Source: Patescibacteria group bacterium | GTDB lineage: Bacteria > Patescibacteriota > Patescibacteriia > UBA10025 > JAHIVO01 | DNA length: 64,000 bases | Direction: 5' to 3' | Assembly (NCBI GenBank): GCA_041660605.1 | Contig: JBAZWB010000001.1 | Location: forward strand, 265,295-329,294 | Shown here: positions 2,481 through 58,403 of the stretch, one piece after another | Layout: every line of letters starts with the position of its first letter | Position numbering within the stretch: the first letter of the stretch is position 1 | Translations under genes and position numbers: made by a program | The notes under the pieces: model-generated | The model's input: only the letters and a program-made list of their open reading frames with translations | Told to the model about the DNA's origin: nothing | Database searches by the model: none

Positions 2481-2729
2481 CTATAATGTCACCGCGCTAC
2501 CCGCAGAATTTACTCGTGCTTTAACGATATTTATTCCGAAGAATGTTTTTCCGACAACTATGTATTGGTCTAGATTTCCTGATTCTACCTGACGCTCCGT
2601 AATTTGGTATCTAAAGACAAATATTTTTTGGAAAGGATTGTCAAAATATGTTCGTGTTGCCTGTAAAATGACGGGTACCATACTGTCTGGTATTTTATTG
2701 TCATCGGAGATGGTCTTTACTGATGGCAT
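2481..2729 (-). CDS. hypothetical small protein, possibly N-terminally extended with a TM anchor
   Basis: 82-aa ORF. The in-frame upstream stretch encodes a hydrophobic segment (KKIFIIVILLGILIAVFGPLII) but has no canonical start codon, so the true start is uncertain. Confidence 0.3.
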   Translation of the reverse strand: MPSVKTISDDNKIPDSMVPVILQATRTYFDNPFQKIFVFRYQITERQVESGNLDQYIVVGKTFFGINIVKARVNSAGSAVTL

Positions 2730-2844
2730 AATAATAAGAGGCCCGAATACTGCAATGAGGATCCCGAGTAAGATAACTATAATTATGAAGATTTTTTTAG
2801 GGGAACGCGCATCTAGTTTGATAAATGTAGCCCAGGGGAATGCT

Positions 2845-3196
2845 TAATAGCAGGGGTGGGATTTCCGCGTCTCCTTCGCTTTCGCTCGGGCTCCTTGTCC
2901 TGAGCAGCGCCGAATGCTCCTGATGGTCGCATTCGTCGGCGTTCGTCTGCCCCTTCGGCTCCGCTCAGGGTTGCCTCACTTCTGCTCGTTCGAATCCCAC
3001 GAGCTTAAAAATATCGTTATGCTTAATAGCAGGGGTGGGATTTCCGCGTCTCCTTCGCTTTCGCTCGGGCTCCTTGTCCTGAGCAGCGCCGAATGCTCCT
3101 GATGGTCGCATTCGTCGACGTTCGTCTGCGCGCTTCGCGCTTGCCTCACTTCTGCTCGTTCGAATCCCACGAGCTTAAAAGTATCGTTATACTTAA
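2845..3196. repeat. two tandem ~187-bp direct repeats; each is a degenerate copy of the tRNA-Met 3' half with a ~111-nt GC-rich palindromic insertion in the T-loop
   Basis: Each unit begins with aatagcaggggtgggatt, identical to the 3' terminal 18 nt of the adjacent tRNA-Met in minus orientation. Each also contains GTGGGATTCGAA (T-stem 5' half plus T-loop) about 130 nt away. Copies differ at a few positions and carry internal hairpins (cgaatgc...gcattcg, gcgcgcttcgcgc). Confidence 0.8.
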
Positions 3197-3270
3197 TAGC
3201 AGGGGTGGGATTCGAACCCACGACCTCGGGCTTATGAGTCCCACGCTCTAACCAACTGAGCTACCCTGCC
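3197..3270 (-). tRNA. tRNA-Met (anticodon CAT; elongator type or tRNA-Ile2 lysidine type)
   Basis: Minus-strand sequence is GGCAGGGTAGCTCAGTTGGTTAGAGCGTGGGACTCATAAGCCCGAGGTCGTGGGTTCGAATCCCACCCCTGCTA. The D-arm is identical to E. coli elongator tRNA-Met. The anticodon loop CTCATAA has U33 and A37. There is a G1-U72 wobble, one A31-G39 mismatch, and no encoded CCA. Confidence 0.8.
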
Positions 3271-3423
3271 GCGTCAGAATCGCACTCCGCCTTCCGTTTC
3301 CAAAATTTTCTGAAAACTGCAGGCTGCGTGCGCTTCTTCCTTTCCTCGTCCGCCCATGGGCGGACTCGGTTTTTAATTTTTTAAATTGTCTGCCTAAATC
3401 AAACTATCGCAGTCAGCAAGGAT

Positions 3424-3498: not shown

Positions 3499-3698
3499 TC
3501 GTCAGAATCGCAGTACGCCATCCGCTTACAAAAGATTTTGTAAGCTGCTGGCTCCCTGCGATTCTTCCTCTCCTCGCAGAAAGCTTCGCTTTCTGCTCGG
3601 TTGTAAGAAATAATTCAGGACTTACTTAGGCGGTAATTTATTATGCGTGTTGGGAATTATAAGGTATTTAATGTATTTACGCAAGCTGGCAAGTTGGG

Positions 3699-3773
3699 TG
3701 GTGCCGCCGGTCGGAGTCGAACCGACATGGGAGTAATCCCACACGATTTTGAGTCCCCGCCATTCGGCGGGGC
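3699..3773 (-). pseudogene. tRNA-like element (75 nt, CCA-encoded) with intact T-arm and 3' acceptor strand but no complementary 5' acceptor strand; chimeric with tRNA-Leu(CAA) segments
   Basis: Minus-strand sequence is GCCCCGCCGAATGGCGGGGACTCAAAATCGTGTGGGATTACTCCCATGTCGGTTCGACTCCGACCGGCGGCACCA. The T-arm GTCGG/TTCGACT/CCGAC and CGGCGGC-A-CCA are canonical. The Leu(CAA) anticodon loop GACTCAAAATCG and a degenerate copy of the Leu T-arm are present, but no GCCGCCG 5' strand could be found. Confidence 0.4.
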
Positions 3774-3793
3774 AAGCGTACATGTCAATTTGT

Positions 3794-3880: not shown

Positions 3881-4020
3881 ATGTTCTATAAAATTAACTG
3901 TAAAATTGATTACCTACGTAATTAAGTAAATCAAAACAGTTTTTAATATATACAATGATTCTAGGTAAAAACGCTGTTTTTGTCAATGATTATTTGCTAT
4001 AATACTATTATATATATTAT

Positions 4021-4794
4021 ATGCCAAAGGTCATTTCCATTGTAAATCAGAAAGGAGGAGTGGGCAAAACTACAACGGCCATAAATTTGGCCGCTTTCTT
4101 GGCGCATCATGGCAAGTTTGTGCTTTTAATTGATCTGGACCCCCAGGGAAACGCTTCTTCCGGCCTTGGCATTGATTATAAAACCATTGAAAAAGGCATA
4201 TACCATCCCTTAATAGCCGGCCACCCATTAAAGGATATCATCACTCCGACCAGCGTAGATGGATTAAGAGTGGCGCCGGCGACGATCGATCTGGCAGGGG
4301 CGCGGGTGGAGCTGGTGGACATGGAAAAAAGGGAGTTCCGCCTGCATGACGCGGTTTTGGAAGTGCGTAATGATTATGATTATATAATCATTGATTGTCC
4401 GCCCTCCCTGTGCCTCTTGACGGTTAACGGGCTGGTAGCCGCTGATGAATTAATGATTCCCGTACAAACCGAATATTTCGCCCTTGAAGGATTGAGCCAG
4501 CTTCTCGACACCATAAAGCTCGTACGGGAAAATTTAAAACCAGAATTGAAAATAATGGGCGCGGTCATGACCATGTATGATGATCGGAATAAATTATCGC
4601 AGGATGTTTTCCATGAATTGTATAAATACTTCCCGGATAATATTTTTCGCACCGTTGTGCCCCGCAATGTCAGGCTGGCGGAAGCCCCCAGCTTCGGCCA
4701 GAGCATCTTGCATTACGACAAGCGATCTCCGGGCGGTAAAGCTTATAAAAGATTAGCGCAGGAAGTCATTGATCTGACTGAAGCGTTGCAATAA
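4021..4794 (+). CDS. parA: chromosome partitioning ATPase ParA/Soj
   Basis: 257-aa ORF with the deviant Walker A motif KGGVGKTTTAINLAAFLA and overall ParA/Soj architecture. It sits upstream of parB. Confidence 0.9.
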   Translation: MPKVISIVNQKGGVGKTTTAINLAAFLAHHGKFVLLIDLDPQGNASSGLGIDYKTIEKGIYHPLIAGHPLKDIITPTSVDGLRVAPATIDLAGARVELVDMEKREFRLHDAVLEVRNDYDYIIIDCPPSLCLLTVNGLVAADELMIPVQTEYFALEGLSQLLDTIKLVRENLKPELKIMGAVMTMYDDRNKLSQDVFHELYKYFPDNIFRTVVPRNVRLAEAPSFGQSILHYDKRSPGGKAYKRLAQEVIDLTEALQ

Positions 4795-25458: not shown

Positions 25459-25677
25459 GTCGGAATACTATAATATTATTGCTGGTATATTTGATTTGAT
25501 TTTTTCTGATTTTGTGCTATAATGTGGCTAATTCGCTTATTTTTTTTACTTTTTTTGCAAATTTTGCACTTACTAAATTTAAGCAGTCTGAGATGATTCA
25601 GGATGATAATTAATTTATTGACTATCTAGTTGTCAGAATTTGGGAAGCGCGATTTTAGCCCGCCGATTCATATTCGT

Positions 25678-25751
25678 GGGTGATTAGCTCAGCTGGTTAG
25701 AGCGCTATCCTCACACGATAGAGGTCTCAGGTTCAAATCCTGAATCACCCA
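25678..25751 (+). tRNA. tRNA-Val (anticodon CAC)
   Basis: Sequence is GGGTGATTAGCTCAGCTGGTTAGAGCGCTATCCTCACACGATAGAGGTCTCAGGTTCAAATCCTGAATCACCCA. The cloverleaf is canonical, with anticodon loop CTCACAC and no encoded CCA. Confidence 0.85.
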
Positions 25752-25847
25752 TTTATAAAAAATAGACTTTGGGGTTCGTAGCTCCCCATACCATACTCAC
25801 TTTGTTCGTAGGTACGGGGCAAGCAGTTGACTAGAGCGCCACATTGA

Positions 25848-25956
25848 TCCCTCACCTTCCTCTGCGCGTGTAGCTCAGTTGGTTAGAGCGTCACATTGAC
25901 ATTGTGAAGGTCCCAGGTTCAACTCCTGGCACGCGCATGTAGAGGAAGGTGAGGGA
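25848..25956 (+). repeat. perfect 16-bp inverted repeat bracketing tRNA-Val(GAC)
   Basis: tccctcaccttcctct (25848-25863) directly abuts the tRNA 5' end. Its exact reverse complement agaggaaggtgaggga lies at 25941-25956, 3 nt after the tRNA 3' end. This is a processing-stem-like arrangement. Confidence 0.85.
25864..25937 (+). tRNA. tRNA-Val (anticodon GAC)
   Basis: Sequence is GCGCGTGTAGCTCAGTTGGTTAGAGCGTCACATTGACATTGTGAAGGTCCCAGGTTCAACTCCTGGCACGCGCA. The cloverleaf is canonical, with anticodon loop TTGACAT. Confidence 0.9.
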
Positions 25957-26020
25957 TAAAGGTCAGAGGTTCAACTCCTCTCGGACCCACCAAGGAGCGT
26001 TGCAGATTGATAAAATTTAA

Positions 26021-26158
26021 AGCGGCTCAGTTTCCGCCAAAGGCGGATCAGCCTCTGGCTGAGGTTAGAGCGTCACATTGACACCTGCCCGCAATGCCTT
26101 GCAGCAATGCGTGGCAGGCGGGTTGTGAAGGTCCCAGGTTCAACTCCTGGCACGCGCA
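26021..26158 (+). pseudogene. disrupted tRNA-Val(GAC) copy with 30-nt D-loop insertion and 39-nt insertion between anticodon-loop positions 37/38; no proper 5' acceptor strand
   Basis: The copy matches the intact gene from GCTCAGTT through CACGCGCA, plus 35 nt of identical 3' flank. It carries the insertion tccgccaaaggcggatcagcctctggctga (26033-26062) in the D-loop. It also carries cctgcccgcaatgccttgcagcaatgcgtggcaggcggg (26084-26122) after TTGACA of the anticodon loop. The 5' end reads AAAGCG instead of GCGCGTGTA. Confidence 0.6.
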
Positions 26159-26350
26159 TGTAGAGGAAGGTGAGGGATAAAGGTCAGAGGTTCCTCCGCC
26201 ACAATAAATTAAATAAATTAAAGTAGGGCGGGGTCCCCGCCCACCTGCCTTGCGGCAGCGAGGCTGGCGCGGCGCCTTTGGCGGAAACTCCTCTCGGACC
26301 CACCAGCAATTTAAAAGTTTTTATTATAATTAATCGATTTTTAAAATAAA

Positions 26351-29718: not shown

Positions 29719-32700
29719 ATGGGAGGCAGAAATAAAAATAAATTCATTACGGGGGCGGTTGTAGGATTAATTTTCAGCTTAGCGCTGATAGCTATGGCTG
29801 TTTTTGTCCTGCCAAATGCCGTCTCCGCCCAGGCGACTATTAACAGCGAGCTAGGGACGACTTTTGGTTTGGGCACGGCGGGCCTGGAATCGACAGTAAT
29901 AAAGATCGTCCAGTGGGCGCTCGGCTTCCTCGGGCTGATAGCGGTGATCATGATCATCTACGGCGGCGTGGTTTGGATGACCGCGGCCGGCAACACTGAT
30001 AAGGTAGCTAAGGCCAAGAAAATAATCATCCGCGCGGTGATCGGGCTGGTGATTGTTCTCTTAGCCTGGGCGATCGTCATGTTTATCGTTGACAGGATAA
30101 ATAAAGCCACCGGTGGCGGCGGAGATTTTTGCGATCCTCATTATTTTGGACCAAATTGGCCGGCTGACGCGGAGGTACGCTCGGACGGCTGTGCCTATTG
30201 CAATGAAAGCGGTACCGGCTGGATAGTTATCCCTGGCTGCGTCACTTTGCCGGATACCGACACTTTCCGCGTCAAATGGGTGGATCCGACTGACGGCGAA
30301 CATGACGTGCCTTTGTGCAGCATCGTGCAGGCCAAGTTGAACGGTAAAGTTGTGCCCGCTTCCATCGCTGGTAATGTTGGGCTGTATGTTAACGGTGCCA
30401 CGGCTAAAGGTGGCGATGCGTGTCTTGCCAACAATGAATGCATGTCTGGCGTTTGCGATATTGGCGGCACTAACCAGTGCGTGGGCGATGAAGTCGCCGG
30501 CAACTGGCAGGTTTCACCTGACCAGACAATCATAGAATTTTTACCGGCTACCGATTATCTGGAGAATCAGTGGTACCGGGCGGAATTGAGGAGAAATACC
30601 CCAGGGAATCCGGTTATTATCCAGGAAGACGCCGCTGATCCGCGTGATTTCGTAACTAAAATATGGATGTTTACTACCGGCATTACGACTTTGGATGTGC
30701 CTCCGACCGTGACTACAATATATCCAGCTGATGGTGAAGATAAAATTTGTTTGAACACCGCCATCCAGTCAATATTTTCCAGTAAAATGCGGGCCGCTTC
30801 AATGAACGCCAGTACTATAAAATTGGCTGAGGCCGGGACAGGAGATTACGGAATTAACATTAACGATCATACAAGTAATTCTTTTTCCGGCCGTCCGGCC
30901 AAACTTTTAAACGCCGGTAAAGAGTATAATGTTACTTTAACTGCCGGAGACCCCGGGAATAATGATCCGAATAACGGTGTTATGGACGTTTGTCTGAATC
31001 ATCTTGATGGCGATGCGGATACTGTTGAAGAAGGCACGGCCGGTGGCGATAATTTCCTTGAAACGGTACCGCCAAGCTCCAATCCCACCTTTACGGATGC
31101 GCCCTGGAATTTCTTAGCTGATACTGACACTACCAATGATAAATGCATACCGGAAATAACCGACATTGTGCCGGCTAATGGCAAATATGATAGCACCGCG
31201 GTAGATATACAGGGCGTGAATTTTGGTATTATTGGTTTCACCTATTTTAATAAAGGAGTAATTAATGCAGGGAATTGTTTTGACGGGGGGGGATGGCCTA
31301 GATTAGAATGCGTCAACAGCTGGTCGGGCAATAATATAAACATTCACGTGCCTGGCGGTCCGATCAACGGCGGCCAGAAAGCAGTGCCGTATAACGGCGC
31401 GGCCGATGGGCCGGTATCCGTGGAAGTGGCTGGCAAAACCAGCAACAATTGGACTTTTGACGTAGCCAGCCCGCAAATATTAAAAGCCATCGGCTTTAAA
31501 AACAATCGCCACGGCGGTACTGACCAGTATGTTACCCTGATCAGCCGTTCTGATACTGACGGTGGTTTCGGTGATAATACAGGTACGGTGGTTTTCCGGA
31601 GTTTTCAGCCTCCCTACAATGTGGTTACTGCGCCTTTCCCTCCTGATCCGCCTTGTGACGCCTCCTGGGCTAATGACCAGGTGATTATTAAAGTACCTGA
31701 TCTGACAGCCACGCTAGGCGTTCCCGCTTGCCCGGTGGCCGGACCCGCTGACTGGGTAAGTTGCCTGAATACTCCTTCCATGGTGGGTATTCAGCTTATC
31801 AGGAACGGAGGTGATCGTAGCAATATAGTTAATTTTGTCTATACTAATGAAGAAGCCGGTCCGGGTTTGTGCGCCATTCAGCCGCAGCAATGCGGTACGG
31901 GCGGTGAGACCGTAACTGCGGTGGGCCAGAAATTTCTTGCTCAGACTCCTGCGAGCCGAGTGCATTTTTCCGCCATCCAAGCAGTAATAAATAGCTGGAC
32001 ATTGAACCTGGTGACCGGAGACAGCGCGCAGGTTACTGTGCCAAGCCTTGATAACGCTGAAGATTATCTGGTGACGGTTTCAAATTCCGTTGGCACAAGT
32101 AACCCCTTGCTCTTTGACGTACCGTGCGGCCTGATACCAAAAGTGGTGGAAGATTCCTCCTGCGAAAATTATTGCCAGCTTGATCCTACCCTTAAGGGCT
32201 GTACTGAAGACATAGACTGCGGCGTTTCCGGTCCCTGCGTCACCGGCATTTCCTCGCCAAATCCGTATAAAGGCAATACTGACGTCTGCGTCAATGTTAA
32301 CGCCGCGGCGTCTTTTAATACTCTGATGGACGACGCCATGCTGACTGACGGCAATCTGGTCTATCTGCAGAAATGCAATGATGATAATTGCTCGGATGTG
32401 GATCCGGCCAAGGTGGCAGGCGCTTTGTCGGTATTTATCATTGACCCCACTCACGAAGGCGTTGAGTTCAATCCGGCTGTTAACCTTGATCCCTCAACAA
32501 CATACCAGATGACTATCCAGAAAGAAGTGCAGAGCGAGGCTGGCGCGCACATGAATAATGATTACAAGTGGCATTTCAAAACTAAAGACAGCATTGAACC
32601 CTGCCCGGTGGAGAAAGTGGTAGTTGCTCCGAACAGCGCGATTTTATATAATCTTGGAGACACTCAGAATTATTCCAGCTTAGCCCAAGGTCCGAACTGC

Positions 32701-35700
32701 ACCATCTTAGATCCCAACGACTATACCTGGGCCTGGACTTCGGAGGATTTTGGAATTGCCAGTGTTCCGGTGCCCAGCAGCATAACGCGAAATGAAATCG
32801 CCACCGCTACCGGCCTAGGCACTACTTATATAAAGGCCAGCATTCCCGCGGAAAGCAAGAGCGGCCGGGGCAGGCTGAAAGTTGATCCGGAATCCTGCGC
32901 TTTTAATCCTGATCCTGGTTACTGTGCTAACCCCGGTGGCGGTGTAACCTGTCCAGGCAGCTGGTGCGATTTACTGGCTGACAAATGCATGCCGGTGATT
33001 ACTGAGCGATCCATACCGCCGGATATACCGCCGAAGGAAATCACTCCACCCCAGGGACCAGCGGGCACTACGGTTTCTATTGAAGGCTGCTGGTTTGGCA
33101 GTAAAACCGGTCAGGTGATTATTGACCAGGCAGCAACTTTTGAATGCAGTAATTCCTGGTCAAGTAATTTGATCGTGGCGACTACTGATCCCTTAATTCC
33201 TACTGGTAATAAGCCGGTGGAAGTATTGACAGCTTACGGCCGATGCAACGGCGGCGACAGAGACGGCCGGTTATGCACGGTGGTAGGAGAATGTCCCGGA
33301 GCCGCGTCATGCGATAAATTTTCCAATATGATTGACAGCGGTCAAAGCGGAGCGCTTAGTAAAAATTTTAATGTTACTGACAGATGTTCCGGATATTGCG
33401 ATCCTAACATCAGCCCGGCGGAATTTGCCAATGCTCCTTGCGTTGATGATAGTAATTGCGATAATGTCCCCCTCAGCTGCAAGAAAGTGCTTCCGACCGG
33501 CGGCATACCGGGTATTTGCCCGCCTTTACAGCCGTCTGCGGGACCGGAGCTGACGCATGTATATATTGAAGGCTTTAATCTTTTGCCTGATAACGCGCAG
33601 ACTGTAGATGATTTGGTTTATTATCCACGAGGTAAGTCAGACACTCGTGATGATATAATTTTTTCATATTTGGAAAAATGGACCGGTACGGCTATCGATA
33701 GAAGCCGTGTGCCGGTTGGCGCGGAATCCGGCGCGGTTAACGTGCTGGTGGACAACTGCCCCTCAAATTCTCTGCCTTATGCCGTGACCTGCACTAACAA
33801 CATCCAGTGCGGTACGGGCTGCTGCGCTGATCCCGGCACGGGCCAGAAGATGTGCCTGCCTTTTGATCCATATTGTCTGTCTGGTACCATGCAGCCATGC
33901 CAGATAGAAGAAAATACCGACACTCCGGAATCTCCCGAAAATCCCAACTGCACTTCCGGCCAGATCTGGAATCCGGGTAATTATATGTGTATCAGTACCA
34001 CAGGCGATACTTCTCATGAATTTCCGGCACCGCCAGAAGATGCCACGCATCTATTCGGTACCGACTGCCGCGTGTGCTGCGACGCCAATCCGCCGCAGGT
34101 GTCAGCTTCAGGCTTGACCTGCCGCGCGGACAAAGGCGACTGCAGCGGCACCGAGCGCGGATTGTATTGCGGCTGTGACCCTGCAATTCCCGGCCAATGC
34201 GGAGCGGGCTTCGGCTGCAGCGCCAAAGACACCTGCTGCTATCCGGAACCCGTCATTGATCATGTCATACCTGATCCGTTAGCGGGCAATCTGCTCTGCA
34301 CCAACGTGGTTATCCGGTATTACTTCAATGAAGTCATGGATACGGAGACCATGAATACCGCCAATATTATAGTAACTGATGGCACAGATCCAATCGCCGG
34401 AAAAATAGATATCCATAAAAATAAAAAGGGTTTTGGTTTTGTCGCGGATAAACCGTACACACCCGGCCAGCAGGTGCATATCGAGGTAACGACCAATGTC
34501 AAGAATAAATACGGCGTGGGCATGGCGGGTTCTGATTCCAGGATTTGGACTATTGATCCGGCCGCGTCCCTCTGCGCCATTAACCAGATTGATTTTACGA
34601 TCATTACCACCGGCGCGCCGCCGACTTATGATCCGCCGGACGTGTTTCGCTGCGCCACGGATAATTGCAGCGGAGACATGGATCCCGCGCCGGGTACGGG
34701 CAACGAGCATGGCATCACGGCCTATGCCTATGATAAAAGAGGCCTGGAAGTGGCAGCTACCTATCAGTGGCAAGAAGAAGATGACGCGAATGTTATTGCC
34801 ATTGACCAATTGGCCGTAGGCACTGATAACGCTATCACCGCGCAACCCAATAATGGCAAAGCTAACATAGTAGTGACGGCTACCGAGCAGTACGTTGGCG
34901 ATTCGAAACTAACCGATAAGGCCAGAGTCAGCGTGATGCTGTGCGAAAAACCCTGGCCCAATCCGTATGCGCCGGAAATGGATCAGTTTCCTTTTGAGGA
35001 TTCTGACCGCAATCCGCCGGCTACCTGGAAACCGGACACCATTTTCCATACAAATAATTTTATTGCTAATTACAGCATCTGGTATTGCCGCGATTCCGGC
35101 AATCCGCCTTTATTAGAGCGCACTGATCAGGTAACAGTCCGTGACGGCTCGCCGACGGATCCGGACATAGTCAAGGAATACTTTTTCCTCAGGCCTGGCA
35201 CCAGTACGGACGGCATCGGCATTATTGTCGCCGACAATCCTGATAATAAATCTCCGGAGCAATGGTATCGGGATAAATTCGGCGCGGCCGCACCAGCGCC
35301 CCAGAGTCTGACAGTGGACGGCTATCCGGCGGTCAGAGCCGGCCGTACCGTTTATGTCGGCGTGCCGAACCTGGTAGGCGGAGCATTCCATCAATATATA
35401 TATTTATTATCTCATGACCAGGAGGCTTCAGATGAAACGCTGGATATCTACAACCGCCTGCTGGCCAATTGGGAGTTTAATGTTAATGTTGATCCGGCAC
35501 AAAAGGCAGCTTTGCAGCGCGATTTGCAGAGAATCAATAGCTTGGAGGAAATTTACGGCAAAATGCTGGCTTATAAGAATAAAAATGGCTTTTTCCCCAA
35601 ACTTGAAGGCGGTTCGTATATCCAGCATTTGTCCAATTCCAAATGGCCTTCCTGGCAGGAGACGCTGGGGTCCAGCATTAACAGTCTGGGCTTTATACCG

Positions 35701-38700
35701 CATCAGGCGCCGTTCCTGGAAAAACTACGCGGTTTATTTGTTAAAAACGCGGTCGCCCAATCCGGCCTGGCCGTTGATCCGTTGAATAAATTTGATTTGC
35801 CCGACCCCTCGCTGCCCCCGCAGTGCCTGGAGGACAACGGATTTAACCAGGATACCTGCTGGAATGAAACAAAACATTTGTATGAATGTCCGGCCAATTC
35901 AAATATTTACCAATATATGGTGGATGCCAATGGCGACAATGCCGCGCTCTATGCCCGGATGGAATACAGCGGTGCCGATAGTTTTGCAAATTATTTTGGG
36001 GGCGATCCTTGTACCGGCATAACCGGCGCCACCTGCAACTGCTTTAATTATGTATTGGGCGTAACCGGCAATCTGGCTGATCACGAAGGTCCGGAAATCC
36101 AGGGGGTGGACGCCTTGGGGGCCGGTGTGAACTGGATCAGCAGCACCCGGCCACTGGGCGTGTTAGTCGTTGACAAGCCAGACCTTAATCCCAGCGGCGT
36201 CAACCGGGTGGAATTTTTCGTTGACGGCATTAGGAAATTCACGGACAGCGACGGCACTGGTCCGGGCTGGTCCTGGGATTTCGTTTCCACGCAGTATGCC
36301 GACGGCGACCATAAGATTTCTGTGACTGCCTACGATAATGTTGGTAACTGGACCACGAAAAATTATGACATTAAAATCGACAATTCCAGCGGAGCGGATA
36401 CTACCGATCCCTTCATCGCCATCGCCCGGCCGGGAAACGGCGCTTCGGTCAGCGGCAAAGTCATCATTGAAGCGCAGGCCAGCGATAACCAGGTGCTGGC
36501 GCAGGTGCAGATTTCAGTTGAGGGCGCTTCGGCTAACTGGGTCTGTCCTGGCGGCGGTTCAAGCATGACCTGTACGACAGCCATCCCGAATCACTGGAAC
36601 ACCGCAGCACTTGACGCTGATGGCAAATATATCTATCCCAATGGCGAATATACCATCAACGCCACGGCCACAGACGCAGCCGGCAACAGCCGCACTGCCA
36701 GCATAAAAGTGAAAGTAGCCAACAGCGATTATACCGCACCATCCGTTGTTTTGACCGCGATATATAACGGCGGTCCGGATCATTGGAATAATGGAGATGT
36801 CATACCTGGCGCTATTGCGTACGCCCAGGGTCCGGGCGAGGTGTGGGTCTGGGTGATACCTACTGACGACCAGGGGGCTGACCAGTTCTACAAGCCCGGT
36901 CGCGTGAAATTCTACGTTGATGGCATCTATCGCGCTGACGGGTCAAATGATAATGGCGACCAGGTGTGGGAATGGGCGCCATGGAACACCCTGGAATACT
37001 CCAACGGACTGCATGAACTGACCGTCTATGTTTATGACGACGCGGGCAATATGGCCAGCGATACCTGGTATATTACGCTGAATAACGCTCAGTCAGACAT
37101 GGAACCGCCGGTAGTTAATTTTAGAAATGCCAAATCCAATCCAACAGGGAGAACGCTTTTAAATGGCCAGCCAGCTACGCAAATCATATATATTGATGCC
37201 AGCGCTTCAGATAATATCGGCGTTACAAAAGTTTATTTTTATCGCGATTATATATTGCGATCCGAGGTCATTGTTCCGGATCCAATGACAGGCTACTCCT
37301 GGATGGTTGATACTAATGCAATTTCGCCGGGTTGGCATACTTTTCAGGTGGACGCGGAAGACGCGGCGGGAAACCGCAGCGACGCCATTGAGATACGCCT
37401 GAATATCGGCGGCGGCGGCGCTCCAATTTGCGGCGACGGCATCATTACCAACTTTACTGTTCCGCCGGAACAGTGCGAGCTGATCGGCTACACCCCGCCG
37501 CCTGATAATCAGCCTATTTACAGCATGAACGGCGAGACCTGTAAAACATTGGGCTATGGCTGCGGCACCCTGGGATGCAATCCGCCCCTCTCCGCTAATG
37601 AGTGCCAGTTTGATGTTAGCCAATGCAAAAACTCCGTTTGCGGTGACGGTAAGATCGAGTGCGGCGAAACCTGTGAAAGTGTATCGGACTGCCCGGCCGC
37701 GCCTAATGCTTGTTCTACTATTAATTGCAATAGTTGCGACTGCTCTTACGATCAGAATTGCACCAACGCGCCGGGGTGCGAGCCTGGTACCCTTACCTGG
37801 TGCGCCAACTGCAACCACTGCAACAATAAGATCAAGGATTGCGATGAAACAACCACGGATTGTGGCGGCGCCATGTGCCCGACCTGCGGATGCACGCCAG
37901 GAAACCAGCGATGTACAGTAACCTCACAGACGCAGGTCTGCAATAACCTCGGCGTCTGGGTAAATGAAGCGCAAACCCTGCCTACCTGTACTGCCCCGCC
38001 TAGTTATCCTTTCTGGCAGGGCGATTGTAATTTGGGCTCAACATCAGGTTGCTATTCTGGCACTGTTTGTAAAACCTCGGGAGCTACCGATGCTCACTGC
38101 GAAAGTAATCAGGCCATACAATGTACTGCAGCCTGCCAGACTGGTTGGTCACTGGCTTATAACCAGTGTTGCGTCACCCAGCGATGTAATACCGGCCCAC
38201 CTCTACACACGGAGAAATTTGTAAGCGGTTCCTGGGTTGATGAACCCCAGGGTACACCAATTTGCAGTATGGCCAATGGGGCCAATTGGGATGGAAATTG
38301 TGTTATGGGTAATAGCTGCTACAACACTACAATCGGTTGTATGATGACTGGCGGCGGAACAGATGCTAAGTGCGTGAATACAAGCGTCAACCCATTCCAA
38401 TGCGTGGCCGCTTGCCAGAGTTCATTTCTAGCCGCGTATAACCAATGCTGCGCCGTATGCGTTGACGGCACAAAGCAGGATTGCGGCGCTACGAATACTG
38501 ATGTTGGCGAATGCAATATCGGCGAGCAGACCTGCGTCAGCGGCGCCTGGGGACCCTGTACCGGCGAAATTCCTTCGTCGCCGGAAATTTGCACTGGCGG
38601 CAAGGATGAGGACTGCGACGGCGCTATTGATGCTGCGGATACGGATTGCGCCATGCAGTGCAATCAAGCCTGCAACCCGCCCAGTATAAATTGCGCCAGC

Positions 38701-39771
38701 CCCTTGATCTGCAGCAGCGGTTTATGCCGCAACAGCGCCTGCCCTCTCCAAACTGATTGTATTTGCCCTACTATTCTATATACTATTACGCTGACCTGGA
38801 GCGGGACCACGGATCTTGACCTCAATTTATTGAGAAGCGATCTCAAGCGCTGGTACTGGGGGCACCCTGACATTGATGAAGGCATAGATTGGAATAATAT
38901 TAACTCTAATACGGAGGTTATAGAAATAACTGCAGAACAAAGCAGTTATCCTAACGATTTTCAAATACTCATACAGAATAGCGCCGTACCAACAGCGATG
39001 ATCCCCAGCGGTACGAGGGTGGATATTATGGATAATATACGCAGTTTGACTTATACTTATAATTCTCCGGATATGTGCCGCAGCAACAGCAGTCCTATCT
39101 GGCAGGTCGGTGAATTTAATTTCAGTGGTGGCGTTACACCAAATGTCAGCAATGCCTATATGCCCGCGCCTTTCCCGGCCACTTATCCCAGCGTGCCATA
39201 TCAGCAAGCTTCAGGCTCTTGCTGCGCTAATATAACCCAATGTCAGTCAGGGCTCTGCTGTAATGGTGGCTCGCCAGGTGTCTGCGGCGCCTGCTCCTCT
39301 TGTTTTGCTAACAATGGTTCCTGCGAAGTGGCACCGGGTTATTCCTGTGATGAGGTGAAGGACTATAGTGATCCGGATAATAAAGACTGCAAACAGAATT
39401 TTATAGATTGCAAAACTTGGTGTAGCGATAATTATTGCGACAGCATGGGAAATTGCACTGGATTTCTGGTCAGGATGACATATCCGGTTGCGACATATCA
39501 ATATGAACCGGGGAAATGCTATGATCCGTGGAGAAGCGGTGACCCTCAGGATCAATGTTATATTAGTATGGCTTGTGGCGGATATGCTTTTTATGGGCCG
39601 AATAATGAAGCGACGCAATGTTGCCACCCAGCCTCGACTAATCCACCTGGAACTCCGCTTGGTTATGGATGTTATTGCGGACGCGATGTACCGGTTGGCC
39701 CGCCTGTGGATCCAAATCCAGAATGTTTAATCGCCAGTTGCAATGGTCCGAACCTATATGTTTGCGAATAA
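29719..39771 (+). CDS. giant (3350 aa) Cys-rich cell-surface protein; N-terminal VirB2/TrbC pilin-like membrane domain, central Ig/beta-rich region, C-terminal Cys-rich repeats
   Basis: The single uninterrupted ORF is GC-richer than its neighbours. The N-terminus has a signal-anchor plus two hydrophobic helices split by a short basic loop (IYGGVVWMTAAGNTDKVAKAKKIIIRAVIGLVIVL). The C-terminal ~700 aa hold CGDG cysteine-rich repeats, CDGxDxDCDG-type motifs and a ~91-aa Cys-rich unit repeated about 2.5 times (DNA ~37900-38480). Antisense ORFs inside the gene are spurious. Confidence 0.9.
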   Translation: MGGRNKNKFITGAVVGLIFSLALIAMAVFVLPNAVSAQATINSELGTTFGLGTAGLESTVIKIVQWALGFLGLIAVIMIIYGGVVWMTAAGNTDKVAKAKKIIIRAVIGLVIVLLAWAIVMFIVDRINKATGGGGDFCDPHYFGPNWPADAEVRSDGCAYCNESGTGWIVIPGCVTLPDTDTFRVKWVDPTDGEHDVPLCSIVQAKLNGKVVPASIAGNVGLYVNGATAKGGDACLANNECMSGVCDIGGTNQCVGDEVAGNWQVSPDQTIIEFLPATDYLENQWYRAELRRNTPGNPVIIQEDAADPRDFVTKIWMFTTGITTLDVPPTVTTIYPADGEDKICLNTAIQSIFSSKMRAASMNASTIKLAEAGTGDYGININDHTSNSFSGRPAKLLNAGKEYNVTLTAGDPGNNDPNNGVMDVCLNHLDGDADTVEEGTAGGDNFLETVPPSSNPTFTDAPWNFLADTDTTNDKCIPEITDIVPANGKYDSTAVDIQGVNFGIIGFTYFNKGVINAGNCFDGGGWPRLECVNSWSGNNINIHVPGGPINGGQKAVPYNGAADGPVSVEVAGKTSNNWTFDVASPQILKAIGFKNNRHGGTDQYVTLISRSDTDGGFGDNTGTVVFRSFQPPYNVVTAPFPPDPPCDASWANDQVIIKVPDLTATLGVPACPVAGPADWVSCLNTPSMVGIQLIRNGGDRSNIVNFVYTNEEAGPGLCAIQPQQCGTGGETVTAVGQKFLAQTPASRVHFSAIQAVINSWTLNLVTGDSAQVTVPSLDNAEDYLVTVSNSVGTSNPLLFDVPCGLIPKVVEDSSCENYCQLDPTLKGCTEDIDCGVSGPCVTGISSPNPYKGNTDVCVNVNAAASFNTLMDDAMLTDGNLVYLQKCNDDNCSDVDPAKVAGALSVFIIDPTHEGVEFNPAVNLDPSTTYQMTIQKEVQSEAGAHMNNDYKWHFKTKDSIEPCPVEKVVVAPNSAILYNLGDTQNYSSLAQGPNCTILDPNDYTWAWTSEDFGIASVPVPSSITRNEIATATGLGTTYIKASIPAESKSGRGRLKVDPESCAFNPDPGYCANPGGGVTCPGSWCDLLADKCMPVITERSIPPDIPPKEITPPQGPAGTTVSIEGCWFGSKTGQVIIDQAATFECSNSWSSNLIVATTDPLIPTGNKPVEVLTAYGRCNGGDRDGRLCTVVGECPGAASCDKFSNMIDSGQSGALSKNFNVTDRCSGYCDPNISPAEFANAPCVDDSNCDNVPLSCKKVLPTGGIPGICPPLQPSAGPELTHVYIEGFNLLPDNAQTVDDLVYYPRGKSDTRDDIIFSYLEKWTGTAIDRSRVPVGAESGAVNVLVDNCPSNSLPYAVTCTNNIQCGTGCCADPGTGQKMCLPFDPYCLSGTMQPCQIEENTDTPESPENPNCTSGQIWNPGNYMCISTTGDTSHEFPAPPEDATHLFGTDCRVCCDANPPQVSASGLTCRADKGDCSGTERGLYCGCDPAIPGQCGAGFGCSAKDTCCYPEPVIDHVIPDPLAGNLLCTNVVIRYYFNEVMDTETMNTANIIVTDGTDPIAGKIDIHKNKKGFGFVADKPYTPGQQVHIEVTTNVKNKYGVGMAGSDSRIWTIDPAASLCAINQIDFTIITTGAPPTYDPPDVFRCATDNCSGDMDPAPGTGNEHGITAYAYDKRGLEVAATYQWQEEDDANVIAIDQLAVGTDNAITAQPNNGKANIVVTATEQYVGDSKLTDKARVSVMLCEKPWPNPYAPEMDQFPFEDSDRNPPATWKPDTIFHTNNFIANYSIWYCRDSGNPPLLERTDQVTVRDGSPTDPDIVKEYFFLRPGTSTDGIGIIVADNPDNKSPEQWYRDKFGAAAPAPQSLTVDGYPAVRAGRTVYVGVPNLVGGAFHQYIYLLSHDQEASDETLDIYNRLLANWEFNVNVDPAQKAALQRDLQRINSLEEIYGKMLAYKNKNGFFPKLEGGSYIQHLSNSKWPSWQETLGSSINSLGFIPHQAPFLEKLRGLFVKNAVAQSGLAVDPLNKFDLPDPSLPPQCLEDNGFNQDTCWNETKHLYECPANSNIYQYMVDANGDNAALYARMEYSGADSFANYFGGDPCTGITGATCNCFNYVLGVTGNLADHEGPEIQGVDALGAGVNWISSTRPLGVLVVDKPDLNPSGVNRVEFFVDGIRKFTDSDGTGPGWSWDFVSTQYADGDHKISVTAYDNVGNWTTKNYDIKIDNSSGADTTDPFIAIARPGNGASVSGKVIIEAQASDNQVLAQVQISVEGASANWVCPGGGSSMTCTTAIPNHWNTAALDADGKYIYPNGEYTINATATDAAGNSRTASIKVKVANSDYTAPSVVLTAIYNGGPDHWNNGDVIPGAIAYAQGPGEVWVWVIPTDDQGADQFYKPGRVKFYVDGIYRADGSNDNGDQVWEWAPWNTLEYSNGLHELTVYVYDDAGNMASDTWYITLNNAQSDMEPPVVNFRNAKSNPTGRTLLNGQPATQIIYIDASASDNIGVTKVYFYRDYILRSEVIVPDPMTGYSWMVDTNAISPGWHTFQVDAEDAAGNRSDAIEIRLNIGGGGAPICGDGIITNFTVPPEQCELIGYTPPPDNQPIYSMNGETCKTLGYGCGTLGCNPPLSANECQFDVSQCKNSVCGDGKIECGETCESVSDCPAAPNACSTINCNSCDCSYDQNCTNAPGCEPGTLTWCANCNHCNNKIKDCDETTTDCGGAMCPTCGCTPGNQRCTVTSQTQVCNNLGVWVNEAQTLPTCTAPPSYPFWQGDCNLGSTSGCYSGTVCKTSGATDAHCESNQAIQCTAACQTGWSLAYNQCCVTQRCNTGPPLHTEKFVSGSWVDEPQGTPICSMANGANWDGNCVMGNSCYNTTIGCMMTGGGTDAKCVNTSVNPFQCVAACQSSFLAAYNQCCAVCVDGTKQDCGATNTDVGECNIGEQTCVSGAWGPCTGEIPSSPEICTGGKDEDCDGAIDAADTDCAMQCNQACNPPSINCASPLICSSGLCRNSACPLQTDCICPTILYTITLTWSGTTDLDLNLLRSDLKRWYWGHPDIDEGIDWNNINSNTEVIEITAEQSSYPNDFQILIQNSAVPTAMIPSGTRVDIMDNIRSLTYTYNSPDMCRSNSSPIWQVGEFNFSGGVTPNVSNAYMPAPFPATYPSVPYQQASGSCCANITQCQSGLCCNGGSPGVCGACSSCFANNGSCEVAPGYSCDEVKDYSDPDNKDCKQNFIDCKTWCSDNYCDSMGNCTGFLVRMTYPVATYQYEPGKCYDPWRSGDPQDQCYISMACGGYAFYGPNNEATQCCHPASTNPPGTPLGYGCYCGRDVPVGPPVDPNPECLIASCNGPNLYVCE

Positions 39772-57453: not shown

Positions 57454-57466
57454 TTATTTATTGGCA

Positions 57467-57495
57467 TTGACAAAATCATTGATTTGATATATGAT
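57467..57495 (+). promoter_or_regulatory. sigma70-like promoter TTGACA-N17-TATGAT
   Basis: -35 at 57467-57472 and -10 at 57490-57495. It drives the small ORF at 57580. Confidence 0.5.
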
Positions 57496-57579
57496 ACTAG
57501 GAATTTCATCTTGTAGTCGTTTTTTCGTAAACCTTTAACCAACAGAACCTTAATTCACTCTATCCACGGAGGGTAAGTA

Positions 57580-57786
57580 ATGGCACGATTCACGGCCGGG
57601 CAGGATGTACAATATCCTGCAAGCATAATTGCTGGCGAAGAAAAGCCACAGATGCGCAAAGGGAAAATTGAATTCGTCGGCGGTAACATGCTGAGTATCA
57701 TCGACGTAGAAACCGGCGTAAGCGCGCTTCGCTTTTTCGCCGTAGACGGGACTATCATTGTCCCTGTTATGAAGCCGAAAGAATAA
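57580..57786 (+). CDS. hypothetical small protein (68 aa)
   Basis: ATG is preceded by GGAGGG at a 7-nt spacing. The unit has its own promoter and terminator. No family recognized. Confidence 0.55.
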   Translation: MARFTAGQDVQYPASIIAGEEKPQMRKGKIEFVGGNMLSIIDVETGVSALRFFAVDGTIIVPVMKPKE

Positions 57787-57813
57787 GGGCTCTGAATAGG
57801 AATTTGTACATGA

Positions 57814-57848
57814 GCTGTCACTGGGTTTCCCGGAGACAGCTTTTTTTA
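57814..57848 (+). terminator. rho-independent terminator
   Basis: Stem gctgtc (57814-57819) pairs with gacagc (57835-57840); T7 run at 57841-57847. Confidence 0.65.
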
Positions 57849-57887
57849 TCCTCCTACATGCCTTTATAGTTAATTATGAAGGCTAAT

Positions 57888-57962
57888 TTGACATAATTTT
57901 TATCCGGTGATATGGTTATTCCAGCAAAACCTTCCCTAAATTTTCGGGAAGGGATTTTTTTT
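57888..57962 (+). promoter_or_regulatory. promoter (TTGACA-N17-TATGGT) immediately followed by terminator hairpin: mini transcription unit or attenuator
   Basis: -35 at 57888-57893 and -10 at 57911-57916. Stem ccttccc (57930-57936) pairs with gggaagg (57946-57952), followed by a T8 run. Confidence 0.4.
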
Positions 57963-58052
57963 ATGGGAAGATTAGGTGCTTAGCATATAGCATATGGCTT
58001 ATAGCAAATAGTTTAAGTTAAATGATAGTAAATTATTACTAATAAAACAACT

Positions 58053-58403
58053 ATGTTTAGATTTGAGACATTGGAAATTTGGAAAGAGGCGATAATTTTT
58101 GTGAATAAAATTTATCTCACTACTGAAAAAAACTTTCCGAAACATGAGTTATATGCTCTCACAAGCCAAGTGCGAAGAGCAGCGATATCTGTTTCTGCGA
58201 ATATCGCCGAAGGCTCGGCTAATGACAGTATAAGGGGTTTCAAATTATTTTTGAATTACAGCATCCGTTCTTTAGTGGAAGTAATTTCTGAGCTCTATAT
58301 TGCAAGAGATAGAGAGTATATAAATAATCAAGATTTTAACTCCCTATATTTAAATGCTGAAGTACTAGTTAAGAGGATAACTTGTTTTAAAAAAAGTTTA
58401 TAG
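58053..58403 (+). CDS. four-helix-bundle protein (23S rRNA intervening-sequence protein family)
   Basis: 116-aa ORF with N-terminal FETLEIWKEAIIFVNKIY and SANIAEGS. The family is recalled from memory as the four-helix-bundle proteins found within 23S rRNA intervening sequences. Confidence 0.8.
   Translation: MFRFETLEIWKEAIIFVNKIYLTTEKNFPKHELYALTSQVRRAAISVSANIAEGSANDSIRGFKLFLNYSIRSLVEVISELYIARDREYINNQDFNSLYLNAEVLVKRITCFKKSL

Follow-up and report, generated by a model that had tools for sequence, protein, structure and literature searches.

Integrase-mediated insertion of prophages, genomic islands and other integrative elements leaves direct repeats of tRNA 3′ ends, as documented in the literature on Prochlorococcus islands. 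Functional RNA genes can also harbor extra sequence that is later removed, as with the intervening sequences (IVSs) of bacterial 23S rRNA and the multi-intron tRNA genes of Thermoproteales, where removal is by RNase III or the splicing endonuclease. The Rickettsia palindromic elements (RPEs), which Ogata et al. are said to have described in 2000 and 2002, reportedly form multi-copy families with a recognizable consensus. RPEs are among the elements mentioned in PMC3767692, and REP/REPIN elements are mobilized by RAYT (Y1 HUH) transposases and carry a GTAG or CGTC tag at the element end (PMC3733652). The mobile GC clusters of yeast mitochondria, including GC42 (PMC4478555), and the repetitive hairpin elements of sponge mitochondria (PMC2800124) combine conserved stems and variable loops in units that merge into composites. 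Here, we analyze two tandem units, each a degenerate copy of the 3′ end of an elongator tRNA-Met gene interrupted by a GC-rich insert, in a 64,000-nt stretch of DNA (hereafter the window; contig JBAZWB010000001.1, positions 265,295 to 329,294, of assembly GCA_041660605.1) from an uncultured bacterium of the Patescibacteria, or candidate phyla radiation (CPR). The explanation that we favor, with moderate confidence, is that these units are remnants of the tRNA-Met 3′ end that arose by local duplication, were hit in the T-loop by GC-rich palindromic modules, and were then duplicated again as a whole.

The intact elongator tRNA-Met(CAT) gene lies at 3197..3270 on the minus strand (ARAGORN; Rfam tRNA model, 68.7 bits), encodes no CCA, and is followed directly by TTAAG. 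Downstream on the same strand are unit 1 (3027..3196, 170 nt) and unit 2 (2848..3026, 179 nt), which share a layout of four parts: an AT-rich linker, a T-arm 5′ fragment (AGCTCGTGGGATTCGAA; 3159..3175 in unit 1 and 2989..3005 in unit 2, minus strand), a segment of 63-64% GC, and AATCCCACCCCTGCTA, the last 16 nt of the tRNA. The GC-rich segment, or insert, occupies 3043..3158 in unit 1 (116 nt, 63% GC, with several hairpins) and 2864..2988 in unit 2 (125 nt, 64% GC), again on the minus strand, and some 33 of the 74 tRNA positions are represented in the units. The two units agree at 165 positions and differ by four substitutions and one block, GCGCGAAGCGCGC in unit 1 being exchanged for CCCTGAGCGGAGCCGAAGGGGC in unit 2. 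Together with 5 nt of trailer, the last 16 nt of tRNA-Met make up a 21-mer, AATCCCACCCCTGCTATTAAG, that is present in three exact copies; 100 shuffles yielded no chance copy, even at 3 mismatches. Copy 1 (3192..3212, minus strand) comprises the 3′ part of the T-loop, the 3′ strands of the T-stem and acceptor stem, the discriminator and the 5-nt trailer. Copy 2 (3022..3042, minus strand) consists of the end of unit 1 plus TTAAG, and copy 3 (2843..2863, minus strand) of the end of unit 2 plus TTAAG, after which comes the unique flank CATTCCCCTGGG; these last two copies share three further bases (CAT) and thus extend to 24 nt.

An earlier note, made from the sequence alone, had already recognized an intact tRNA-Met followed by two tandem degenerate 3′ units, an arrangement borne out by ARAGORN, Rfam and blastn, albeit on the minus strand. 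Several of its measurements need revision: its unit length of 187 bp is that of a gapped alignment, its insertion of ~111 nt measures 116 or 125 nt, and its terminal repeat of the tRNA end, which does exist, is 21 nt (16 of tRNA and 5 of trailer) rather than 18. Its estimate of about 65% GC for the insertion is close to the 63-64% measured here against 46% for the window, and it correctly placed a T-arm piece about 130 nt from the 3′ part, since GTGGGATTCGAA is located 128 nt (unit 1) and 137 nt (unit 2) upstream of AATCCCAC. Parts of the T-arm do stand on either side of the insert, as it proposed, but the anticodon-loop remnant that it added to this reading amounts to at most 5 nt (CATAA/TATAA). 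The hairpins that it listed in the insert, GCGCGAAGCGCGC and GAATGC..GCATTC, are present. The former is found in unit 1 only (3128..3140, minus strand), its place in unit 2 being taken by CCCTGAGCGGAGCCGAAGGGGC (2949..2970, minus strand), within which CCTGAGCGG is able to base-pair with CTGCTCAGG, located some 60 nt downstream. The latter forms a central hairpin, GAATGC-GACCATCAGGA-GCATTC, that is identical in unit 1 (3091..3113, minus strand) and unit 2 (2912-2934).

The evidence that the units contain more of tRNA-Met than its terminal repeat, a point on which the earlier note had made its tRNA-remnant interpretation depend, comes from the T-arm 5′ fragment. AGCTCGTGGGATTCGAA matches AGGTCGTGGG-TTCGAA, which spans the variable loop, the 5′ strand of the T-stem and the T-loop (tRNA positions ~44-59), at 15 of 17 positions, a score equaled in 0-2 of 300 dinucleotide shuffles. 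In unit 1, this fragment sits in the loop of a GCTCG/CGAGC hairpin. The same fragment also holds GTGGGATTCGAAC, which is the reverse complement of the tRNA's GTTCGAATCCCAC at 13 of 13 positions (0 of 300 shuffles), and because the T-arm is nearly palindromic, the direct and inverted readings are inseparable at the Met locus itself. By analogy with the tRNA-Val locus described below, the direct reading, in which the insert splits a T-loop, would be the likelier of the two. An extra A allows GTGGGATT to pair with AATCCCAC at the unit end, so that an 8-bp helix closes the insert; these are the sole inverted termini of the insert, and they derive from the target. A GAA triplet flanks the insert on both sides and may represent either a 3-nt duplication or part of the T-loop.

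The units are non-functional as tRNA genes, intron-containing or otherwise. Neither ARAGORN, with its intron and pseudogene options included, nor the Rfam tRNA model calls them, and the 5′ strand of the acceptor stem, the D-arm and the anticodon arm are all missing from them. No group I or group II intron match was obtained for them in Rfam (E<=1, or gathering threshold); a group I core would exceed 200 nt and lie in the anticodon loop, whereas the Met insert, of 116-125 nt, is located in the T-loop, and what closes it is a simple 8-bp helix instead of a bulge-helix-bulge (BHB) motif. As the earlier note had stated, no integrase is encoded in the 64 kb, and neither Pfam searches of the window nor the precomputed annotation of the corresponding European Nucleotide Archive (ENA) contig revealed any integrase, transposase, recombinase or reverse transcriptase. 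A Y1 transposase or RAYT gene is likewise absent from the window.

A second tRNA locus in the window (25677-26310, plus strand) provides what the Met locus does not, namely interrupted and uninterrupted copies of the same sequence. The intact tRNA-Val(GAC) gene (25863-25938) and a tRNA-like 3′ half that follows it and ends in CCA (to 25992) are repeated at 26063-26305, as part of a partial second tRNA-Val(GAC) copy with its tRNA-like 3′ half (25993..26305, plus strand). Between the two copies, the repeated stretches (21 + 71 + 20 nt) show 100% identity, and in the second copy they are separated by a 39-nt GC-rich palindrome precisely at the 37/38 junction of the anticodon loop (26084-26122) and by a 92-nt GC-rich insert lying exactly between GGTTC and AACTCC of the T-loop (26194-26285). 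The 71- and 20-nt flanks of the latter insert are 100% identical to the uninterrupted copy 220 nt upstream. With both states side by side, insertion of GC-rich sequence into a T-loop is demonstrated in this genome. A further hairpin pair of about 30 nt probably occupies the D-loop of the second copy (about 26031-26062). Direct repeats of 20 nt, AACTCCTCTCGGACCCACCA (25973-25992 and 26286-26305), delimit this copy and, like the Met repeat, start in a T-loop. To Rfam the second copy, which has no 5′ acceptor strand, is a partial tRNA scoring below threshold (26.7 bits; model positions 8-63). A palindrome starting with GTAG, GTAGGGCGGGGTCCCCGCCC, is present at 26223-26242, inside the Val T-loop insert only.

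The Val locus as a whole is a composite structure (25753-26310, plus strand), in which tRNA-Val is flanked by inverted repeats of 17-23 nt (25841-25863 and 25941-25963) and the second copy combines its three loop insertions with a perfect 17-nt inverted repeat (26029-26045 and 26273-26289). Around tRNA-Val there is also an "outer" tRNA-like scaffold, whose 5′ side consists of GGGTTCGTAGCTC and a hairpin insert and whose 3′ side is AAGGTCAGAGGTTCAACTCCTCTCGGACCCACCA; its acceptor strands are complementary and its fold is cloverleaf-like (z = -5.65). This outer structure was considered as an intron-containing gene and rejected, as 230,400 two-insert removals passed through ARAGORN gave no consistent canonical tRNA. 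In relatives, a gene for a giant protein directly follows a glycosyltransferase gene with no tRNA between them. In the window, the tRNA-Val cluster and genes for signal peptidase, HisRS, HIT and YqeY lie between the glycosyltransferase and the giant gene, which encodes 3,350 aa (29719-39771, plus strand) and has homologs of 3,151 to 10,276 aa in the relatives.

Parallel damage is evident at a third tRNA gene. A degenerate partial copy of tRNA-Leu(CAA) with an encoded CCA (3700..3781, minus strand; repeat D4, 76%) starts 12 nt after the intact tRNA-Leu(CAA) gene (3880-3797, minus strand), has no 5′ acceptor strand, and carries a hairpin, CCCCGCCGAATGGCGGGG, in place of the 5′ strand of the anticodon stem. 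It was missed by ARAGORN and matches Rfam only weakly, as tRNA-Sec (30.4 bits). The tRNA-Val and tRNA-Leu loci are thus the places where the earlier note's expectation of similar insertions elsewhere in the window holds. Its specific claim of shared motifs does not: cttgcctcac and gcgcttcgcgc occur only inside the Met units, and the 9-mers at 44327, 44757 and 57724 are chance-level matches in coding regions. Other GC-rich intergenic islands of the window proved to be ordinary terminator-like hairpins. Overall, 6-7 of about 8 insertion events in tRNA-like sequence fall in loops; loops account for about 37% of a tRNA, so that loop insertions are far above chance expectation.

Comparison with relatives places the Met units in time. 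The gene order DsbA-Lgt-(membrane protein)-tRNA-Met-tRNA-fMet-tRNA-Leu-ParA-ParB is retained in relatives whose ParA proteins are 75-80% identical, and nothing resembling the units is present at the syntenic site in the five examined (L004, L006, L007, L010 and L011). In L004, L006 and L011 the next gene comes directly after elongator tRNA-Met, and in L010 tRNA-Met is followed by unrelated AT-rich DNA with a terminator. The absence of the units from syntenic relatives marks them as a recent, lineage-specific addition. L007 carries, about 200 nt downstream of its intact gene, an independent partial tRNA-Met copy (4460-4572, minus strand) that runs from the D-arm to the 3′ end, has its anticodon mutated to TAT, is unrelated to the units of the window, and bears its own 47-nt GC-rich insert in the variable-loop region. 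The flanks of that insert, CCCGAAG and CCCAAGG, could represent a short target duplication. The DNA following this partial copy matches the DNA that follows the intact gene in L010, and L007 also contains three Leu-like T-arm/variable-arm repeats, for which a single gene is called.

The hairpin at Val position 37/38, CCTGCCCGCAATGCC..GGCAGGCGGG, links the window to a much wider set of sequences. A close relative of it occurs in the ParA-ParB spacer of L007, between TTTCCGCCAAAGGCG and GATCAGCCTCTGGCTGAG, two sequences that are contiguous in the window, where they form the D-loop insert. Scanning IMG/VR with the pattern CCTGCCCGC-N10-40-GGCAGGCGGG returned 73 stretches, some of which are coding-sequence coincidences in GC-rich phages. 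From the IMG/VR stretches and L007, 34 distinct variants of 30-41 nt were collected, most of which share the fold CCUGCC-C-GCCG-loop-CGGC-A-GGCGGG, or ((((((.((((...)))).)))))), with conserved stems and variable loops. As many as 5 copies occur in one fetched stretch (L097). Several copies nested in the loop of another copy can be compared with orthologous sites that are uninterrupted (L061 vs L046/L047; L060/L101 vs L110), and no target duplication was seen at the nested sites in these comparisons. Nor does the widespread hairpin have a flanking GTAG or CGTC tag. Because occupied and unoccupied site pairs exist, the contexts are unrelated, and a conserved stem accompanies a variable loop, the CCTGCCCGC..GGCAGGCGGG hairpins apparently constitute a widespread, mobile mini-hairpin family, as judged from sequence comparison. 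Our literature search found no published description of this hairpin sequence, nor of tRNA introns or loop insertions in Patescibacteria.

Several further features of these hairpins were recorded. A two-hairpin module, TTTCCGCCAAAGGCGGATCAGCCT(C/A)TGGCTGA, is present in the window (26030-26062), L007 (6885-6957), L034 (3808-3827) and L036 (3541-3560); it is uninterrupted in L034 and L036, which are AT-rich viral contigs, and split by a nested hairpin in L007. IMG/VR contigs with multiple copies of the CCTGCCCGC..GGCAGGCGGG hairpin, in two loop variants, include L097 (3536-3719, 4518-4550 and 6462-6580), L046, L047, L056, L063 and L087, and nested copies occur in L061, L060/L101, L098, L050 and L091. 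The copies on such multi-copy contigs often lie within a larger repeat with flanks of the CTCTGTG..CACAGAG type. In both L064 and L110, a Shine-Dalgarno-like GGGGGAG just upstream of an ATG overlaps with the hairpin's 3′ arm.

On this background, the Met units may be explained by a short series of events. A stretch of tRNA-Met beginning in the variable loop and ending some 8 nt beyond the 3′ terminus of the gene would have been duplicated locally downstream of the intact gene, the T-loop of the duplicate would then have gained a composite, hairpin-forming GC-rich insert, and the whole unit would have been duplicated once more, with one hairpin module exchanged between the copies. More generally, small palindromic GC-rich modules in this lineage would land precisely, without target duplication, in the loops of sequences that form stem-loops, and redundant copies of tRNA genes would be tolerant landing sites. 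By analogy, the Met insert would have arrived by the same process as the hairpins of the Val locus, and the units presumably have no function of their own. A broader version of this proposal, which we put forward only tentatively, is that GC-rich hairpin elements of 27-40 nt in this lineage and in phage-like contigs, with no enzyme of their own and no target duplication, insert precisely into the D-, anticodon- and T-loops of tRNA genes and into the loops of their own copies, and accrete to composites of 90-125 nt. The Met units would then be duplicated tRNA ends that survived such a hit, and the tandem repeats resembling attachment (att) sites would have arisen incidentally, when the cell repaired or bypassed an insertion into a tRNA gene that is essential and present in a single copy.

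A number of observations weigh against this explanation. The Met insert and its hairpins are single-locus in the collections searched, their mobility is an unproven extrapolation from the Val locus, and the ends of the insert are unlike those of any recognized element. The genome and metagenome sets searched evidently did not include the rest of this organism's genome, and even the Met locus itself was not recovered from them. Within the window, blastn found no second Met unit. Across 185,579 GTDB species-representative genomes, the 18-mer at the left end of the insert gave 17 matches, all at chance level (18-20 nt, in unrelated taxa, with no further extension), exact-pattern scans of JGI metagenome contigs and IMG/VR returned no further copy of the insert patterns, and the unit has no blastn match in phage and plasmid collections. 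The earlier note's suggestion of a small non-autonomous element is accordingly plausible but not established for the Met insert, of which these collections hold no second copy. Second, an inverted copy (13/13) is an equally good reading of the T-arm 5′ fragment, in which case a split T-loop need not be invoked. Third, the predicted folding energies of the units are unexceptional for their composition (z = -0.9 and -2.25), and the 8-bp closing helix and the hairpin swap could reflect selection on RNA structure in sequence that is not junk. Finally, two resemblances to tRNA leaders are left unexplained by insertion: the intact gene has at its leader/tRNA junction the same 7 nt, GACGCGG, that directly precede the 3′ remnant in the units, and CCGAGC-GAAAGCGAAG in the unit resembles the tRNA-fMet leader CCGAGCAGAAAGCGAAG, as did 3-6 of 300 shuffles.

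A rather unlikely alternative is that each unit is a miniature integrative element, of about 150 nt and with attP alone, or the decayed stump of a larger one, inserted twice by a tyrosine or serine recombinase acting in trans on an attB extending from the T-loop of tRNA-Met to its 3′ end, with regeneration of the tRNA end each time. The three exact repeats of 21-24 nt, running from the T-loop past the 3′ end of the gene, are what such events would produce, and the T-loop-to-3′-end interval is reportedly a classic sublocation of tRNA att sites in the classification of Williams (2002, NAR). Four syntenic relatives lack an insertion downstream of tRNA-Met, the Val locus is laid out in the same way, its 20-nt repeat starting in a T-loop, and the repeat includes trailer DNA, which places the event at the DNA level. 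The earlier note had likewise pointed to att-site duplication, which agrees with the direct repeats and the unit-free relatives but for which there is no integrase, no attP that matches, and no uninterrupted core where the right junction would be. No integrase gene lies in the 64 kb; the 21-nt core, tried as an attP, gave 0 matches in IMG/VR and JGI metagenome contigs, and phage and plasmid collections do not contain the unit. The core is also not contiguous at the left side of each repeat, where 116-125 nt lie between it and the 5′ strand of the T-stem. The partial copy of the Leu locus begins 12 nt after the intact gene, leaving no room for an element, and the putative element of the Val locus would hold more than 110 nt identical to the chromosome upstream of the crossover, which site-specific recombination does not predict.

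We consider it quite unlikely that the units instead form a functional, structured trailer RNA, in which the anti-T-arm GUGGGAUUCGAAC pairs with the 3′ side of the T-arm and modulates the folding or processing of pre-tRNA-Met, or which serves as a tRNA-like processing signal ahead of the downstream genes. The units do lie on the strand of the tRNAs and downstream genes with no terminator between, and in a fold of the whole transcript the 13-mer of unit 1 pairs with the T-arm of the intact tRNA (z = -3.7) instead of within the unit. Their GC content, well above that of the window, would also fit an RNA under selection, as would the single inserted base through which the closing helix reaches 8 bp and the exchange of hairpins at one and the same position. 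However, the units are missing from the syntenic site in five relatives, so that a conserved function is excluded beyond this lineage, they match no Rfam family, and their z-scores are weak by comparison with the -6.4 and -9.8 of the conserved leaders nearby. The two copies are, moreover, nearly identical and leave no covariation to assess.

Still more doubtful is the idea that the units are collapsed [leader + tRNA] repeats, with the insert a residue of an inter-tRNA spacer or leader and with most of each tRNA body removed by two deletions ending in T-loops. This idea does account for the two leader-like features noted above, reading GACGCGG as the junction of leader (GACGC) and tRNA (GG...) and CCGAGC-GAAAGCGAAG as a piece of fMet leader, and the tRNA cluster is already a tandem array with a period of 228 nt (repeat D2). 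Yet a leader profile built from six genomes, which finds the two real leaders at E = 5e-24 and 2e-12, does not match the units in nhmmer searches even at E = 10 with filters off; a MAFFT alignment was unconvincing as well, and the insert as a homolog of the conserved leader was rejected. Two independent deletions would be needed, each ending in a T-loop, whereas precise insertion into a T-loop is shown at the Val locus. The leaders themselves are of some interest: a conserved two-hairpin leader lies directly 5′ of each of the two tRNA-Met genes (3271-3375 and 3499-3600, minus strand), the two are homologous (nhmmer E = 2e-12) and give no Rfam match, and the leader is found in relatives with compensatory changes at 16 of 25 pairs. 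Hairpin 1 is wholly different between the two leaders of the window, its flanks CCGAG and CGAGGA being retained.

An assembly artefact, with the tandem units generated from a mis-assembled repeat in the metagenome, is very improbable. The region does appear hard to assemble, as L002 and L003, Logan contigs of the same organism from two independent short-read assemblies, both break inside tRNA-Leu (window ~3845), which is consistent with repeated tRNA-like sequence disturbing assembly. However, reads can tell the units apart by an 11-column indel block and four substitutions, the longest stretch that they share (about 111 nt) is below the k of 141 implied by the name of the ENA contig, and an identical 2.1 kb around the units is present on that 203-kb contig. 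Exact-protein look-ups for variants of the locus returned the identical ENA contig and two contigs ending in tRNA-Leu, and nothing else. Least probable of all is a tRNA intron or split tRNA gene whose insert is spliced from a functional tRNA or half, as the earlier note's phrase "tRNA intron-like" suggested: the inserts do lie in loops, one of them exactly at the canonical position 37/38 in tRNA-Val, but the Met units lack the 5′ half of a tRNA and the Val partial copy its 5′ acceptor strand, the 3-nt bulge / 4-bp helix / 3-nt bulge of a BHB cannot be drawn at the 37/38 insert (by inspection, the necessary 4-bp helix between positions 32-35 and the 3′ end of the insert cannot form, since UUGA is unable to pair with the GGCG found close to that end), introns of group I or II would require more than the 39-125 nt of these inserts and none was matched in Rfam, and the host, with ParAB, Lgt and signal peptidase I, is a bacterium.

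By ParA (~80% identity), the nearest named relatives of the host are Candidatus Kerfeldbacteria, and tRNA-Met is surrounded by bacterial housekeeping genes (DsbA, Lgt, ParA, ParB and others). All tRNA genes near the units are on the minus strand (ARAGORN, Rfam), where the order is promoter match, tRNA-Leu, degenerate Leu copy, initiator-type tRNA-Met (fMet; 3498-3427), elongator tRNA-Met, unit 1 and unit 2. The best sigma-70-like promoter match, TTGACA-17-TAGAAT (11/12; 3958..3986, minus strand), lies 5′ of the tRNA-Leu/tRNA-fMet/tRNA-Met cluster, and the units are probably co-transcribed with the tRNA operon from this promoter and then trimmed away during 3′ processing. On the 3′ side of the units is a small open reading frame (ORF) for a membrane protein (2729-2830, minus strand) with an apparent frameshift at an A7 run: ATG CGC GTT CCC CTA AAAAAA and the hydrophobic N-terminus KKIFIIIVILLG... 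are in different reading frames, which could mean that the gene is a pseudogene, that translation undergoes a programmed shift, or that there is a sequencing error. This ORF, which lies between the units and the next gene, was considered as cargo and set aside, having no Pfam or mobile-element signature and a 103-aa homolog (53% identity) in a Kerfeldbacteria genome. Elsewhere in the window (57454-58403, plus strand), about 600 nt of non-coding DNA precede the gene for a 116-aa protein, which belongs to the "23S rRNA intervening sequence protein" family (PF05635, E = 3e-30). The PF05635 family includes accessory proteins of diversity-generating retroelements; the window has no reverse transcriptase.

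By itself, the Met locus amounts to a minor patch of lineage-specific junk beside a tRNA gene. Yet this is an otherwise compact genome of 0.9 Mb in which each tRNA cluster in view has broken, hairpin-riddled tRNA copies, and at least one of the inserted hairpins belongs to a family that is shared with phage contigs and nests inside itself. The kinds of sequence combined here, tRNA gene remnants and small palindromic mobile DNA, are known; the potentially interesting part is the loop-targeted, self-nesting hairpin family. In practice, such inserts defeat tRNA gene callers and metagenome assembly and mimic introns and att sites. If loop targeting is a property of the mechanism, these hairpins would be among the smallest mobile DNAs known and a bacterial counterpart of mitochondrial GC clusters.

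Comparison with the systems outlined at the start delimits this proposal. As at tRNA att sites, an intact tRNA is followed by repeats of its own 3′ end that begin in the T-loop and take in a few trailer bases, at a site that is unit-free in relatives; unlike them, the Met segments are only about 150 nt, come with no integrase and no attP partner that could be found, and also carry the 5′ part of the T-arm, and the Leu locus has no intervening element at all. The bacterial IVSs and Thermoproteales introns share with these inserts the placement of hairpin-like extra sequence at helix tips and loops (D-loop, 37/38 and T-loop), but the carriers here lack half of the tRNA and any BHB motif, and the host is bacterial. 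RPEs, too, are palindromic inserts of 100-150 nt inside genes of a reduced genome, RNA genes included, and are tolerated by folding out; here, however, the host sequences are dead gene fragments and no family is evident for the Met insert. The REP/REPIN elements are likewise GC-rich palindromes of 20-40 nt, often paired, extragenic, and inserted precisely without target duplication, and one module of the Val locus starts with GTAG, but the 64 kb shows no demonstrable high-copy family and contains no RAYT gene, the widespread hairpin is untagged, and the Met insert was found at a single locus in our searches. The mitochondrial GC clusters offer a further parallel: they also are GC-rich hairpins of 30-45 nt in an AT-richer genome, target non-coding DNA and RNA genes, and have no known enzyme of their own. 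The present hairpins differ from them in belonging to Patescibacteria and phages, in lacking a target duplication of the AG/TAG type, and in residing in the loops of tRNA-like stem-loops or of other copies of themselves.

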